Shown in pieces: positions 54,101 through 60,100 of a DNA stretch of 64,000 nt (within the stretch, counting starts at the first letter, position 1; the number at the start of each line of letters is the position of its first letter). The position numbers are program-made. Source of the stretch: Escherichia coli. Its GTDB lineage: Bacteria > Pseudomonadota > Gammaproteobacteria > Enterobacterales > Enterobacteriaceae. The stretch lies in the NCBI RefSeq assembly GCF_045037415.1, contig NZ_CP173440.1. One strand, written 5' to 3'.

Positions 54101-57100
54101 GTGGAATACTTTACGGAGCAACCATACTTGGTGATAAGGTAAGGCATAATAGTTTTGCGTTAAAACTGTTGCAAATTTATAACAAAAAAGGTATTTTTTC
54201 TAATTTTAGTGATTCAGAAGAAGAACTAAAAAAAATGCTTTCTCATTATTTTAAAAATATTGATGTCATTGTGAAAGGTGCTGTCGCAATGTTCTCTGCG
54301 CATGGAAAAAAATAGCTATTTATCATTTTTTCCTGGATTTATCTTTTTTAAAAACACCTTGTGAACTGATCCCATAGTTTATATTAAGCGACTAACAGGG
54401 CTTGGGTTCGGTCCTCTACCGGACTCAGGCCTTTTTGTTTTATTCTTTCATGGTTGTAATAGTGGATGTACTCATCTATAGCCATGCGCAACTAGCTGAT
54501 ATTCTTATGTTCCTTCAGGTAAAAACATTCAATCTTTAGCGTACCGAAGAAGCTTTCCATTACTGCATTGTCGTGACATTTTCTCTTTCTTGACATGCTC
54601 TGTTTCAGGCCGCTGCCCTTAAGTCGCTTCTGATAATACGCCATCTGGTAGTGCATCTAATTAGTAGAACATGTATTTTTCAATGAAGGCCCCGATGACT
54701 TTTTCATGCAGCTCAACAGAGCGTGAGAAACAGACGGTCGGCGAGCCAGGCGTTTGATTCGGGTTCTCAGCGTCAGATTGTTTCGCTCAATGCGCTGAGT
54801 AGAGATTTTGCCGGTCAGATGCTTATCCTTCGGCACCTCTCTGGCGTAACTTCCCAGTCATCGCTGGTTATTATGCTGATATTAAACGGTGTGAGCAGAG
54901 CCAGCAGCGCACTGCAGGTTGCATCGGTCCGTGGCCCAAAAGTATAGGCCAGCACACCACCTGTTTTCGTGTTGTACGCGTACCAGAGCCAGTGCTACCG
55001 GGCTTTGCTGCCGACCTCCATTGCTCGTGGAGTTCGCAGATGAGCGCCACATCGGCATGAGCAACCGGAGATGTGGTTACTCGTCGTGGCGCGAGTTTTT
55101 TAAAGTGCGAATAACGGTGTTAATGCCGATTTTGAGTGTCCTTGCGGTATCACAGACGCCGGCTCCGTTGAATGCCATTTCGGTAATTTTCTCTTTGACG
55201 CCGTGCTTGCGTGCTTCATAAGTATAAGTGAGCAGAAACACGCGGTAGCAATCGCGGCAGCGAAACCGGTCACGGCCTTTAGGGCTCTGCCTGTGGCGGA
55301 AAACTTGGTCAGACTGACAACGGGGGCAATGAACGGTAACGCTGGTCATGAACAAACCTCAAAAGCACGCATCATACATCAATTCAATTAATTAGAGGCA
55401 TTGATCTCCTCCCTGAAAACAGTGCCGTCTCCTCGCCTCGTGAGCTCACACCAACAGAAGCACCGGCAGAAATAAGAATCCCTGGTTTCTCCTGATACTA
55501 TTTAATAATTTCTGACAGGGCCTGACCTGCTTTCTGAATATAAACTGGTTGCGAGACCTCACCCAGCTGATTGGCAACCATCCGGGTTTCATAATGACTG
55601 GCAGTTAATACCAGAGCTGGCCCGTGAATACAGGACAGTTGTTCAACTACTGCCTTTAACCATTGACCTGAAAATATCTGTTCTTTCGGGTCATCGAACA
55701 CCTTTGGAAAATCAGCACCGGCGATGGTCAGCTTCATTGAGCCATAGACGTCTGGGGAGAATATTTTCCTGATTGAAATCGTATCGCTGGTTAACCCCAG
55801 AGCTTTACATAACCACTCCATTCCGGTCTCTGGGGTACTGGTAATAGAGAGGGTAGCCGACGTCAGTAACGCACTACGCCACTGAGTGCAGTATCTGCCC
55901 ACATTCATCCCGATAAACGGGTTTACAGCGATCAGGGCTGGTTCACGACGTTTATTGGAAACGCCTACGCCCTTTTGCCCCCGGACAATCCGAGCATATC
56001 CCTGCTGTAGATACAGTCAAAGAAAGCTTTCCGGGCCGCTTCATTTTTTATTTTCCGCCCTACCTTTGATAAGGCGTTAAAGCTATTGTCAAACAAGGCA
56101 ACCGCTGCAGGCGTACTACAAAAATGCAGATCGCCCGCTATCGAAGTCACGTCGTTCATTAACTGGTCGATGACATGCACGCCATTACGTGGAATATGTT
56201 CATTGAACGCACTAGTCAACTCTCTGAGGTTGAAGCGCCGCTGTTTCCAGACCTCAAGCATATCTACAAAAATGTCTGCCTCATCAATAATGAGGTACAT
56301 ATTTTCTTTGTCACCGAGGATGCGGTGATTACACATACAGTCGACCATTACCATCGCATGGGTCGTAACAATAAAGTTAGCACTGAGAGCATTCAGGCGA
56401 ATATCATCAATGTCCTGTATATCATCCCAGATGGAGTAGGTGACCATCTCTGGCGTGATCTGCGCTGGCAGTTCACCATACTCTTCTTCAAACTCAACCA
56501 GAGGTTTTGACCAGTTAGCGAGTTTTTCAAGGACCTTAACCGTATCCAGATCGGTAAATTCGTCCATGAGTAACAGTCCACGTACTTTCTCCAGGGATAC
56601 GTAATTTACTTTCCCCATAAGCCGGGAAAAAGTAACTTTTATGCCGCATTGTTCAGCTATCTGTTCAAGGAGAGGACGATCGCTTCTGAATATCTGGTGC
56701 ATCAGTGCATGAGAATTCGTGGCAATCACAAATTTTGCCTCAGGGTTTTTCAGCAGAATCAGAAGCGCCGGTACCAGATAGCCCAGCGTTTTTCCTACAC
56801 CTGTTTCAGCACTAATCAGTGCAACTTTATGATCCTGAGTCAGTGCACCAGCTGCAGCCTCGATATAATCCTGTTGGACCTTACGTAACGACAATCCGGC
56901 AGACTCAAATACCGCTGATGTATTCATGACTACTGCCCCGCCAGATGCATGAAACCGCAACCAAATACGCGTTTAGGGCCTACGCCATAAACGATTCCCA
57001 CTTCAGCTTCCTGTTGATTGCTGATTATGGCGGTACCCTGTACCGTGAATACGGGTAGCGTAAAACCACGTCCAGCATTTCCTTTGTCGATATGGACGAA

Positions 57101-60100
57101 TTTCGGGCCACTGACGACGATTTGACCGGGTTTAAACCCAGCCTTCGCTAATTTGGTGAGGGCCAACTGATAACTAGCCTCTTCAGATGGAGCAAACTGG
57201 CGTCGGCCACGGCCTTCTGACTTTGTTCCTTTATGAAAGATGGCCATTAACGTAATGAACTTGATTTCATGGCCCTCAGAGAGAATAAGCTCTCTTTTTT
57301 TCTCCCCAGGCAACTCCAGAGCTGTAGCTGTGCGGACCAGGAGTAACGAATCATCCCCGGTACCGGGAAAAATTTTAAAAGAGTACGGCAGCTTCTCTCC
57401 CTTACGTTCCTGCATGAAAAAATCCAGGTGCTGGTGGATCTGGTAAACACTTGTGTGACGGATACGCAACCGAAACGCATTATCGTAGTAAATCATGGTT
57501 ATACCTTTTTCAAGAGGTGCAAAATGCTCAGGCGTTGATGGGGATCAGTCGGGGCTTTGTTGAATAAATAAGATTTCGTGCGAACGACCCTGTAGCTGGC
57601 TGGATTTTCAGGCAATACGCACGCTTTCTGGCATCCCAGCCTTTGTCATCCTGTTCAACGCACGCACCATGGCCATAGCTTCCGCTACCTGACCATCGTA
57701 GTCACGCAGCGTCAGTGAATCTCCCAACAACTGCTTCATTCTGTACATTGCCGTTTCCGCTATCGAGCGACGGTTATATTCCGTTGTCCATTTCCACCGT
57801 GCATTGCTTCCGCTCAGCCGCTGATTAGCAACGGCACGGTTGCGGTCTGCGTACTCACCGGGCCAGTAACCTGCTCCTTTTCGGGGAGGAATAAGCGCGC
57901 TGATTTTTTTGCGGCGCATTTCATCGTGACAAAGCCGTGTATCGTAAGCCCCGTCTGCCGCGGCTGCCCTGATTTTTCTGTGAGTCTGCCGGATAAGGCC
58001 CGGGAAGGCTTCTGAGTCCGTGACGTTATTCAGCGACAGGTCTGCACAGACAACTTCATGTGTGTTGCTGTCAACAGCAAGATGCAACTTTCGCCAGATA
58101 CGACGGCGCTCTTTGCCGTGCTTTCTGACTTTCCATTCGCCTTCACCAAAGACCTTCAGCCCGGTGGAATCAATCACCAGGTGTGCGATTTCACCCCGGG
58201 TGGACGTTTTGAAACTGACATTAACCGACTTTGCCCGCTTACTGACACTGGTGTAATCCGGGCAGCGCAACGGAACGTTCATCAGGGCAAAAATGGAATC
58301 AATAAAACCCTGCGCAGCCCGCAGGGTCAGCCGGAATACGCGTTTAATCACCAGAACGGTGGTGATGGCGAGATCAGAATAGCGCTGGGGCCTTCCTCGT
58401 GATGAAGGCGTTGCCGACTCATACCAGGCCTGAATCGCCTCATCATCCAGCCAGAAAGTGAGGGAGCCACGGTTGATGAGAGCTTTGTTGTAAGTGGACC
58501 AGTTGGTGATTCTGAACTTTTGCTTTGCCACGGAATGGTCTGAGTTGTCGGGAGGATGCGTGATCTGATCCTTCAACTCAGCAAAAGTTCGATTTATTCA
58601 ACAAAGCCCTTTGACATGCACAATTATTGTCTGCCCAATAGTCCGATAGTTAGCCTGTTTACAAAAACTGTTGCTGGTCATACTGGTGCTTTATTCCCGG
58701 TTAAGCGGGCTAGTTAACCCAGAGTGATGAACCATCCTGGAGTGGCAGATAAAGCAGAAAGAATGGATTTGTTGCCCTGATTTTTTCCGAATCTAAATAA
58801 AGATTAGCTTAATCACTCGTTGTTATGTTATAACATTAAATTAGCAATATTCTCAGCCAGCAGCACGGCCTGTGGGGGGCGGTTATTGAGAACGAATTCG
58901 GTGAAATCTGTATAGATGATGCATTGGTTATCAATGCAGATGAAGAAGTCTTCGAGATGAATAATGGCTGCATCTGCTGCACGGTGCGAGGAGATTTGAT
59001 TCATATCCTGAGTCGTCTGATGTACCGCCGCGATAAATTTGACCGTATTCTGATCGAATTCCACCGGGATGGCCAATCTACTGAGTGAAGCAAATGAAGA
59101 GAGAGCCGCTAACGATCCTGAATGGTTTTCTTAGTCCTAGTAAAAACATGCGGTTAAAAATTTGTTAATGCAGACACCTCAACCACAATTTCGATGTGCG
59201 TCATCGTGAACGATTTGAGCGGACAGGATGTCGGCGGCGTCCTGATTGCCAGTATAGAAATCAAGAAGGAACACCATGAAGCGCAATACCGTAAGTAATC
59301 TGACAGAAAAAGATGATTTTGATACGCTGGAAAGTATTCTCAGCGTTAATATTCATTCTCTGTTGCGGCCAGACGGCGGGACGTTGCTTTCTGACGTCCA
59401 TTTTGCGGTCAAAGCAGGAGAATGTCTGGCCATTATCGGGCCTAACGGCAGCGGTAAAACTTCCCTCGTGAGAGCGATTAGTCAGGAACTGACCCATCTA
59501 AAGGGGGACATTCTTCTGCGGGGCCGTTCTATGTCTGCTTTATCCCGTCAACAGCGAGCCCGGCTGGTTGCTGTTTTGGCCCAGAATGATACACCTGATA
59601 CGAGATTATCCCTTGAGGATTATGTAGCGCTGGGGCGTATCCCTCATGCCGGGGATGTACCGCGTAATGTACATGACGCGATTGTAGCAAATGCCATTAA
59701 AGAAACCGGATTACAACGGCTACGCAGGCGGTCACTTTTATCGCTTTCCGGCGGCGAAAGACAACGAGCGGCGCTGGCACGGGTACTGGCACAGACGCCC
59801 GACCTGGTATTGCTTGATGAACCCACCAATCATCTCGATCCTCCCGGGCGCGAGGAACTGCTTTCCCTTGTAAAAAACAAGGGGATTGCCGTCGTGGCGG
59901 TGTTGCACGATCTGACACTGACAGAATCATTTGCTGACCGTGTTCTCCTCTTGTCGCAGGGGCAATCAGTGATCTGTGACACACCGGAGAAGGTATTGGT
60001 ATCAGAATACCTTTATCCCGTTTTTGGCTTGACCAGTTTTACCGTACCGCATCCCCATACAGGAAAGGCGTTGCGTATTTTTGAAGTTCCGCATTATGTA

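Follow-up and report, generated by a model that had tools for sequence, protein, structure and literature searches.

The closest described system to the locus analysed here is the CRISPR-Cas system of type IV-A3 found on Klebsiella and Enterobacteriaceae IncHI1B/IncFIB plasmids (Newire et al. 2020, PMC7434947; Benz et al., bioRxiv 10.1101/2023.06.23.546257; Cepaite et al. 2024, PMC11519345, PDB 8S35-8S37). A complete IV-A3 locus covers about 6.3 kb of cas genes and array, lies next to umuDC and has the gene order cas8-like (csf1)-cas6-dinG (624 aa)-cas5-cas7-array. The purified IV-A3 complex contains Cas5, Cas8, Cas7 and Cas6 (Benz et al., bioRxiv 10.1101/2023.06.23.546257; PMC11519345), and Cas6 was not modelled in the cryo-EM structure (PMC11519345). 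Partial IV-A3 loci, associated with insertion sequences, have been described on IncHI1B/IncFIB(Mar) plasmids as '(cas8-like, cas6 and dinG)' or '(cas7 and a CRISPR array)' (Newire et al. 2020, PMC7434947).

We analysed a 64,000-nt stretch of the Escherichia coli contig NZ_CP173440.1 (hereafter the window) and found that positions 55432-57552 on its minus strand are, with high confidence, a non-functional 2.1-kb relic of a plasmid type IV-A3 operon (Table 1). The relic contains the last 17 codons of csf1, an intact 188-aa cas6 and a dinG pseudogene, and is flanked at both ends by insertion sequences; the identity of these genes, their lesions, the boundaries and the distribution of the fragment are direct observations. 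End to end, it aligns with positions 8001-10122 of the complete locus L002 at 98.9% DNA identity, and the same collinearity was found with the complete loci L003 (98.4%) and L010 (96.7%). Intact loci have the two genes in this order and at this spacing (cas6 stop, 2 nt, dinG start), which makes a cas6 immediately before dinG the native arrangement. Chance matches for the two genes are excluded by profile E-values of 1e-82 and 1e-123. The initial annotation had read a Cas6-like gene beside a DinG-family helicase as the signature of a type IV-A-like remnant, and this reading is supported by PADLOC profiles, the 8S35 structure and the collinear intact loci; the subtype is exactly IV-A3 and nothing contradicts the assignment. 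It had placed the remnant at 55498-57496; the fragment is wider and includes the csf1 tail.

Unlike the complete loci, the relic has no cas5, cas7 or array, retains only a trace of csf1, carries a dinG that is disabled three times, and lies between insertion sequences in an rmpA / iron-uptake virulence region. It shares IS-mediated fragmentation with the partial loci of Newire et al. (PMC7434947) and resembles their first class, from which it differs by the reduction of the cas8-like gene to 17 codons and the decay of dinG. The fragment has been sequenced before and is an ordinary relic, not a new system. In the literature that we searched, we found generic statements on partial IV-A3 loci and no mention of the pLVPK-type virulence-plasmid copy, which is not proof that this copy is unreported.

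Table 1 Features of the IV-A3 relic and of its borders in the window (positions are those of the 64,000-nt stretch).
Feature	Position	Strand	Basis or remark
Degenerate IS1-family element	~54647..55410	-	NCBIfam, end sequences
About 23 nt of unassigned sequence, from the dinG truncation to the IS1-family element	55409..55431		Junctions compared with IS1 and L002, boundary by eye
dinG (csf4) pseudogene, codons 1-499 of 624	55432..56927	-	tblastn, PADLOC, PDB 8S35_M
CAG->TAG nonsense, dinG codon 477, inside Helicase_C_2	55498..55500	-	Codon analysis
Frameshift, G5 run (G6 in intact genes)	55978..55982	-	Alignments with four other locus copies
cas6 (csf5), type IV-A3, Cas6e-like, 188 aa, intact	57496..56930	-	PADLOC, PF08798
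csf1 (cas8-like), last 17 codons and stop	57499..57552	-	Only large-subunit trace
Complete 1057-bp IS903-type element (IS5 family)	57553..58609	-	Inverted repeats, NCBIfam

The 188-aa ORF, which ends in ...GVGPKRVFGCGFMHLAGQ and is followed 2 nt further on by the helicase ORF, scores as a Cas6 with profile methods. The PADLOC profile PDLC01711 Cas6_0_IVA3 matched it with an E-value of 4.6e-82 (residues 1-187 on profile positions 2-188 of 189) and a score of 272 bits, whereas the Cas6e profile scored 37; the generic Cas6 and Cas6e profiles reached only 1e-9 to 1e-10 and Pfam PF08798 1e-7. NCBIfam gave no Cas6 match for this protein, its library being without a sensitive model for this Cas6. A phmmer search of the PDB sequences returned nothing at E <=0.01 (a marginal match to the Cse3 C-terminus had an E-value of 1.1), because Cas6 was left unmodelled in the IV-A3 cryo-EM structure. 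Compared with the Cas6 of L002, the protein is 99.5% identical and carries a single amino-acid difference, S83L, at a variable position of the family where Leu is found naturally.

A single-sequence AlphaFold prediction was unusable (pLDDT 36) and the structure was modelled instead with AlphaFold2 from an alignment of 27 family sequences (pLDDT 93.7). In this model the protein adopts the double-RRM fold of the type I-E Cas6e proteins (CasE/Cse3; PDB 4U7U, 4DZD, 2Y8W) and has their C-terminal glycine-rich loop, GxGxxxxxGxG. The top 24 Foldseek matches in the PDB were all Cas6e, with E. coli CasE (4u7u_D) the best at a TM-score of 0.77, and the family profile matched only Cas6e structures. Among the 27 family members the loop glycines G171, G173, G179 and G181 show little or no variation, and at least 90% retain the putative active-site histidine, H21. 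A profile alignment that places residues 11-183 on residues 10-195 of the CasE chain puts H21 at about CasE residue 20. From this alignment offset, which is not a residue-level structural alignment, H21 is the presumed counterpart of CasE H20, a residue with a reported catalytic role. Unlike type I-E Cas6e, the protein serves a type IV effector; it shares only about 16% identity with the solved Cas6e proteins and falls in a separate family of small size (45 representatives after clustering at 50%). The initial description of an intact gene for a Cas6e-like protein with a glycine-rich loop therefore holds in both parts. The IV-A3 repeat folds as a 6-bp GC hairpin (-12.1 kcal/mol), and the relic Cas6 is predicted to cut such hairpins, an activity that could still work.

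The true ATG of dinG is at 56927 and not the TTG at 56960 of the mechanical ORF list. The first helicase ORF stops at 55965, and the helicase continues as a second piece in a different frame (55908..55498); tblastn recovered residues 1-320 and 317-499 of DinG in two frames with 97.5-97.8% identity. Both pieces matched the PADLOC profile Csf4_0_IVA, the first with 411 bits (E 1.9e-123) and the second with an E-value of 1.6e-49. The first 319 residues share about 98% identity with the solved IV-A3 DinG of K. pneumoniae (PDB 8S35_M, E 8e-209), as against an E-value of 3.5e-11 for E. coli DinG (6FWR), and the NCBIfam DinG and YoaA models gave 71-83 bits for cut-offs of 598-789, which groups the helicase with CasDinG and not with housekeeping DinG/YoaA. 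It had been described as frameshifted and lacking its C-terminal motifs; both statements are right, but the gene has three lesions and not one. A 1-nt deletion shifts the frame at codon 318 and leads to a TAG at 55965-55967 and a 320-aa product, a nonsense codon follows at codon 477, and homology is lost at 55432 inside codon 499. As a result of these lesions the Helicase_C_2 domain, residues 430-585 of intact DinG, is lost, and the sequence does not encode a complete helicase core with both RecA-like domains and Helicase_C_2. It is a pseudogene of the CasDinG (Csf4) family and not a working member.

Absence of Cas7, Cas5 and large-subunit genes, already pointed out in the initial annotation, was confirmed: tblastn within the window found no cas7, cas5 or full cas8, and of Csf1 only residues 247-263 of the 263 in L002, at 100% identity and with the TAA stop at 57499-57501. 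The effector gene set cas8-like (csf1), cas7 (csf2) and cas5 (csf3) is not present in the window. Nor is an array with the 29-nt IV-A3 repeat, for which the window contained no match at up to 3 mismatches, nor in a script scan that allowed up to 5; no tandem array was found in the window, and an Rfam search of it gave no match, CRISPR-DR included. A classical virulence plasmid of 193 kb, scanned whole, had no other cas gene and no IV-A3 repeat. The earlier statement that the locus is without an array is thus correct for the window and for this plasmid, but not for the closest complete relative, a 295-kb hybrid plasmid that is collinear with the window and 99.99% identical. It carries a second, complementary remnant 93 kb away, with cas7 (99.4% identical) and 20 repeats that match the IV-A3 consensus taken from L002 (L006 12312-13433). 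The replicon from which the window comes therefore probably does contain an array.

Homology to the intact loci breaks off abruptly on both sides, on one at the inverted repeat of IS903 and on the other close to the IS1-like element. As first described, IS903 lies directly upstream of cas6: it is a complete element with perfect 18-nt inverted repeats (57552-57569 and 58592-58609) and an IS5 family transposase (NCBIfam, E 1e-105), and it stands 56 nt from cas6 in the same orientation, its transposase gene (58576..57608) pointing towards cas6. Homology stops there at 57552, and the element severs the 5' part of the operon, csf1 and the promoter. The IS1-family copy noted downstream of dinG is likewise present in a degenerate form, with ends that resemble IS1 ends, an InsA-like ORF (55355..55077), insB in pieces, and transposase matches of 6e-23 and 1e-8 on two fragments (NCBIfam). 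About 23 nt part the dinG stump from this element, which makes it no more than a candidate cause of the 3' deletion.

Relic matches were found in 822 PLSDB plasmids; identity is at least 99% in 447 of these, which comprise classical virulence plasmids and hybrids, and the relic is fixed in K. pneumoniae virulence plasmids. Non-mobilizable plasmids make up 374 of the 822, and cas7 was found in only 14 non-mobilizable plasmids. In K. pneumoniae IR5065 (NZ_CP061949.1), IS1B has deleted the backbone cas8-cas6-dinG-cas5 and left cas7 with a 20-repeat array, a second remnant that corresponds to the second class of Newire et al. (PMC7434947). We considered whether one IS1 had split a single locus into both remnants of NZ_CP061949.1 and rejected it: the breakpoints differ (dinG codon 499 versus cas5 codon 212), as do the elements (degenerate IS1-like versus IS1B), and in classical virulence plasmids the cas6-dinG relic is also found by itself.

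We infer that the ancestor was a complete cas8-like (csf1)-cas6-dinG-cas5-cas7-leader-array locus. An IS903-associated deletion would have taken the operon promoter and csf1 except for its 17 codons, and a second one, beside the degenerate IS1-family element, the 125 codons at the 3' end of dinG together with cas5, cas7 and the array; the homopolymer frameshift and the nonsense codon in dinG would have come afterwards. Within the rmpA / iron-uptake region the relic has been passed on almost unchanged to classical K. pneumoniae virulence plasmids and to the IncHI1B/IncFIB hybrids that acquired this region. Alone, the relic cannot silence or interfere, as crRNA, the Cas7/Cas5/Cas8 backbone and a helicase are all missing. 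Only Cas6 might still be active, in trans.

In cas6 the native AAGG ribosome-binding sequence is kept upstream of the ATG, and the stretch from the IS903 transposase stop codon to the gene has no terminator-like site. The 56-nt spacer gave no sigma-70-like site when scanned for promoters (regional counts were at shuffle level), and we therefore infer any expression from read-through out of the co-oriented transposase gene. The solo gene might then be a retained working gene, either as the sole enzyme to mature the crRNAs of an IR5065-type cas7 and array, or by processing, or competing for, repeats that belong to a co-resident IV-A3 plasmid with a divergent Cas6 and so modulating inter-plasmid interference. 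The intact gene beside a thrice-damaged dinG points this way, as do the repeats of the closest relative, which match the consensus of the locus whose Cas6 is nearly identical. Also in favour are other hybrids, which carry the relic alongside a complete locus with a Cas6 of only 87.8% identity, and a gene-conversion tract in pFQ61_ST383_NDM-5, which repaired the relic frameshift and shows that the two loci interact physically. IV-A3 arrays also target virulence-plasmid DNA, a leader-proximal spacer matching it at 31/32 positions with an AAG PAM. If true, Cas6 competition would tune IV-A3 silencing between plasmids, including that of virulence-plasmid DNA. We nevertheless regard a retained working gene as very unlikely. 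Lineage-specific changes number 11 substitutions and 1 indel per 1496 nt in dinG and 1 per 567 nt in cas6, an excess that is not significant (12 versus 1, p ~0.09, hand binomial estimate), and the sole cas6 change is non-synonymous, with no synonymous one, so that there is no positive sign of selection keeping the gene. Chance alone is expected to leave a 567-nt gene intact in a plasmid lineage so close to clonal, and cas6 is dispensable because derivatives that lost it exist (matches H182-H184). Furthermore, target binding by crRNA, Cas6 and Cas7 without Cas5 and Cas8 is not known. Read-through expression coupled to activity in trans, on IR5065-type crRNAs or on competing hairpins, is improbable to much the same degree.

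That the pair is a chromosomal-type I-E remnant, or an unrelated protein beside a housekeeping DinG/YoaA repair helicase, as the RefSeq name 'type I-E CRISPR-associated protein Cas6/Cse3/CasE', the name 'DinG family ATP-dependent helicase YoaA' in one record and the Cas6e-like fold and loop might suggest, is practically excluded, being refuted by the PADLOC and NCBIfam scores, the low identity to solved Cas6e proteins, the 8S35 match and the collinearity with intact IV-A3 loci.

As a dead IV-A3 locus whose genes are already annotated in RefSeq, the relic matters little in itself. The RefSeq labels are misleading ('type I-E' for Cas6, 'DEAD/DEAH box helicase' and 'hypothetical protein' for the dinG pieces), and the relic can mislead automated CRISPR typing and annotation of hypervirulent K. 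pneumoniae. It is also a handy lineage marker for the rmpA / iron-uptake region moving into hybrid resistance-virulence plasmids. In such plasmids IV-A3 fragments from two sources occur side by side and recombine, which is relevant to the role of IV-A3 in the spread of virulence plasmids.

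To place the relic (window 55432-57552, minus strand), we compared it with complete type IV-A3 loci located by megablast against PLSDB. In C. freundii pKPC2_CFR867 (L002), K. pneumoniae OW968375 and pKpvST147B_virulence (L010) the order is a cas8-like csf1 (263 aa), cas6 (188 aa), dinG (624 aa), cas5 (235 aa), cas7 (343 aa) and the array, and the arrays of complete loci contain 17-21 repeats of CCGATAACCCCCGCANNCGGGGGGAATAC (IV-A3 repeat sequence GUAUUCCCCCCGCAUGCGGGGGUUAUCGG). The relic is collinear with these loci, the complete loci in PLSDB being 96.7-98.9% identical to it. 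Its whole length pairs with L002 8001-10122, from which it differs by 22 substitutions and a single 1-nt deletion. It holds the final 17 codons of csf1, all of cas6 and dinG codons 1-499. Homology to the intact locus breaks off precisely at the inverted repeat of IS903 at one end and within dinG codon 499 at the other, where about 23 nt separate it from the IS1-like element. The initial annotation had described a Cas6e-like gene just upstream of a frameshifted helicase gene on the same strand, between IS903 and an IS1-family copy. The ORFs, the 2-nt gap and the frame change bear out the gene arrangement, and the inverted repeats and transposase matches bear out the flanking elements.

Features of the relic and of the insertion sequences around it
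Feature	Window coordinates	Strand	Remarks
cas6 ORF, 188 aa	57496..56930	minus	C-terminal end GVGPKRVFGCGFMHLAGQ
Helicase (dinG), first piece	ATG 56927, stop at 55965	minus	start set by homology; 2 nt after cas6
dinG, second piece, 136-aa ORF	55908..55498	minus	different frame
IS903-type element, complete, 1057 bp	57553-58609		upstream of cas6; perfect 18-nt inverted repeats; IS5-family transposase E 1e-105
IS1-family element, degenerate	about 54647-55410		downstream of dinG stump; IS3-transposase fragment beyond
IS3-family transposase fragment	54492-54656	minus	abuts IS1-like element
CobW/GTPase-like piece	58924-59088	plus	IS903 on one side, iron ABC transporter genes on the other; motif NGCICCT

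The CobW/GTPase-like and IS3 fragments flanking the relic likewise point to repeated scrambling of this region by insertion sequences.

The 188-aa protein scores as a Cas6 over its full length (PADLOC Cas6_0_IVA3, E 4.6e-82) and belongs to the Pfam Cas6e family PF08798. A PDB sequence search with it gave no match, and Cas6 could not be modelled in the IV-A3 cryo-EM map (PMC11519345). The family comprises 45 representatives among 1.84 billion proteins, and its profile matched Cas6e structures exclusively. An AlphaFold model based on the family alignment (27 full-length members; pLDDT 93.7) has E. coli CasE as its nearest structure (TM 0.77) and T. thermophilus Cse3 as the next; the family alignment shows conservation of H21 and of the glycines in the loop. 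The RefSeq name 'type I-E ... Cas6/Cse3/CasE' gives the wrong type. The gene had been thought intact and indeed differs from the Cas6 of intact loci only by S83L, at a variable position where Leu occurs naturally in four homologues.

Both helicase pieces matched one PADLOC profile, Csf4_0_IVA (positions 6-339, E 1.9e-123, and 361-510, E 1.6e-49), and the N-terminal 319 residues are ~98% identical to the solved K. pneumoniae type IV-A3 DinG (PDB 8S35 chain M, E 8e-209). These results support the proposed type IV-A remnant and, with the Cas6_0_IVA3 match, refine the subtype to exactly IV-A3. A housekeeping DinG/YoaA was rejected, as the NCBIfam models gave 71-83 bits, below their cut-offs of 598-789; the match to E. 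coli DinG is weak (E 3.5e-11). The frameshift and C-terminal loss reported earlier were both found, and a nonsense codon brings the independent lesions to three: a G6 to G5 contraction (55978-55982) that changes the reading frame from codon 318 on, leaving a 320-aa product, CAG to TAG at codon 477, and the 3' truncation at codon 499. Helicase_C_2 (residues 430-585 of intact DinG) is missing from the relic in every reading.

Next to nothing else of the system lies in the window. cas5 and cas7 are absent by tblastn, as had been stated, and there was no IV-A3 repeat at up to 3 or up to 5 mismatches, no tandem array and no match to Rfam families. The claim that a large subunit gene is missing holds for a full csf1 but not for its last 17 codons. 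Likewise, the lack of an array holds for the window but probably not for its replicon. The closest complete relative, the 295-kb conjugative IncHI1B/IncFIB hybrid plasmid NZ_CP061949.1 of K. pneumoniae IR5065, is collinear with the whole 64-kb window at 99.99% identity, bar an 838-bp IS1-adjacent deletion. Scanned nearly in full, this plasmid revealed a second, complementary remnant ~93 kb from the relic, beside umuDC (L006, a piece of this record, 12281-14609; record about 113.5-115.9 kb). In it cas5 is down to its final 24 codons, cas7 is intact (99.4% identical) and the array has 20 repeats with two spacers duplicated; IS1B cuts the remnant off. Since this relative has an array, one elsewhere on the window's replicon is probable. 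The same scan found no cas8, no complete dinG and no cas5 beyond the 24 codons, so that both remnants combined provide Cas6, Cas7 and an array without Cas5, Cas8 or DinG. pKpvST147B_virulence carries the relic plus a complete IV-A3 locus. The classical virulence plasmid p11492-CTXM (non-mobilizable, 193 kb), scanned whole, carries the relic only, with no IV-A3 repeat at up to 6 mismatches.

Silencing by IV-A3 requires a Cas5-Cas8-Cas7-Cas6-crRNA complex and, inside transcribed regions, DinG as well (Benz et al., bioRxiv 10.1101/2023.06.23.546257). The relic, without guide RNA, Cas7/Cas5/Cas8 backbone or helicase, is a dead locus, and Cas6 is the sole part that could still act. cas6 retains its ribosome-binding region and lies 56 nt downstream of the IS903 transposase gene in the same orientation; the interval contains no terminator-like and no promoter-like site, making read-through transcription from the transposase gene plausible. 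Lineage-specific changes number one (non-synonymous) in cas6 versus 11 substitutions and one indel in dinG (about p = 0.09, hand binomial estimate), a contrast that gives no positive indication of cas6 being under selection, and relic derivatives without cas6 occur among the PLSDB matches. A role in trans for the lone Cas6, serving the separated array or a co-resident IV-A3 system, is an unsupported possibility that we consider very improbable.

The most likely history, as we infer it, starts from an IncHI1B/IncFIB-type ancestor with an intact IV-A3 locus, which would have undergone IS-associated deletions on both sides of the relic and subsequent point decay of dinG. At ~23 kb from the relic, p11492-CTXM (191688-193176 and 1-120) retains a fragment of umuC and the Xre/RES toxin-antitoxin pair, genes that in intact plasmids lie just past the IV-A3 array; this fits a common ancestry of the backbones. 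Hundreds of annotated records contain sequence identical to the relic, and Newire et al. 2020 (PMC7434947) described IS-associated partial IV-A3 loci on IncHI1B/IncFIB plasmids, '(cas8-like, cas6, dinG)' and '(cas7 and a CRISPR array)', exactly the two kinds represented by the relic and the NZ_CP061949.1 remnant. IV-A3 systems are also on record for hybrid virulence plasmids (PMC9094440); our literature search found no text singling out the relic copy fixed in pLVPK-type virulence plasmids.

Relic DNA is present in 822 PLSDB plasmids (447 at >=99% identity), 374 of them non-mobilizable, and cas7 in 423, of which 14 are non-mobilizable. These counts agree with a plasmid-dependent presence of the remaining IV-A3 parts. 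The leader-proximal spacer of L002 (5760-5791) matches virulence-plasmid DNA at 31/32 positions with a 5'-AAG PAM, indicating that IV-A3 plasmids carry guides against this virulence-plasmid lineage. The target, upstream of a P-loop NTPase gene, lies outside the window (p11492-CTXM 132369-132400; NZ_CP061949.1 about 281459-281490), and none of the 71 spacers examined hit the window.

Two clearly distinct cas6 allele classes occur in otherwise similar IV-A3 loci, L010 9674-10240 and window 56933-57496 having 87.8% amino-acid identity. The about 50 nucleotide differences are concentrated in cas6 and the adjoining dinG is far less divergent, a pattern that suggests mosaic recombination within the operon. 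In the hybrid plasmid pFQ61_ST383_NDM-5 (NZ_CP091814.1; L011 6001-8122) a relic tract of at least 879 bp, corresponding to window 55846-56724, carries L010-type intact dinG alleles. It includes a restored G6 run, so the frameshift is repaired and the ORF reaches 476 aa; the nonsense codon lies beyond the tract and is still present. Relic DNA matches NZ_CP091814.1 in two places by megablast, and the tract looks like gene conversion from a presumed further cas6-dinG copy carried by this plasmid. Elsewhere in the window, the 838 bp missing relative to NZ_CP061949.1 and pSC7-vir map to 52550/52551, beside IS1 (51783-52550). This deletion takes out rmpD and the final 61 nt of rmpA (mucoid-phenotype regulator genes), and the rmpA ORF that is left (53119..52529) encodes 196 aa, its 3' end being altered.
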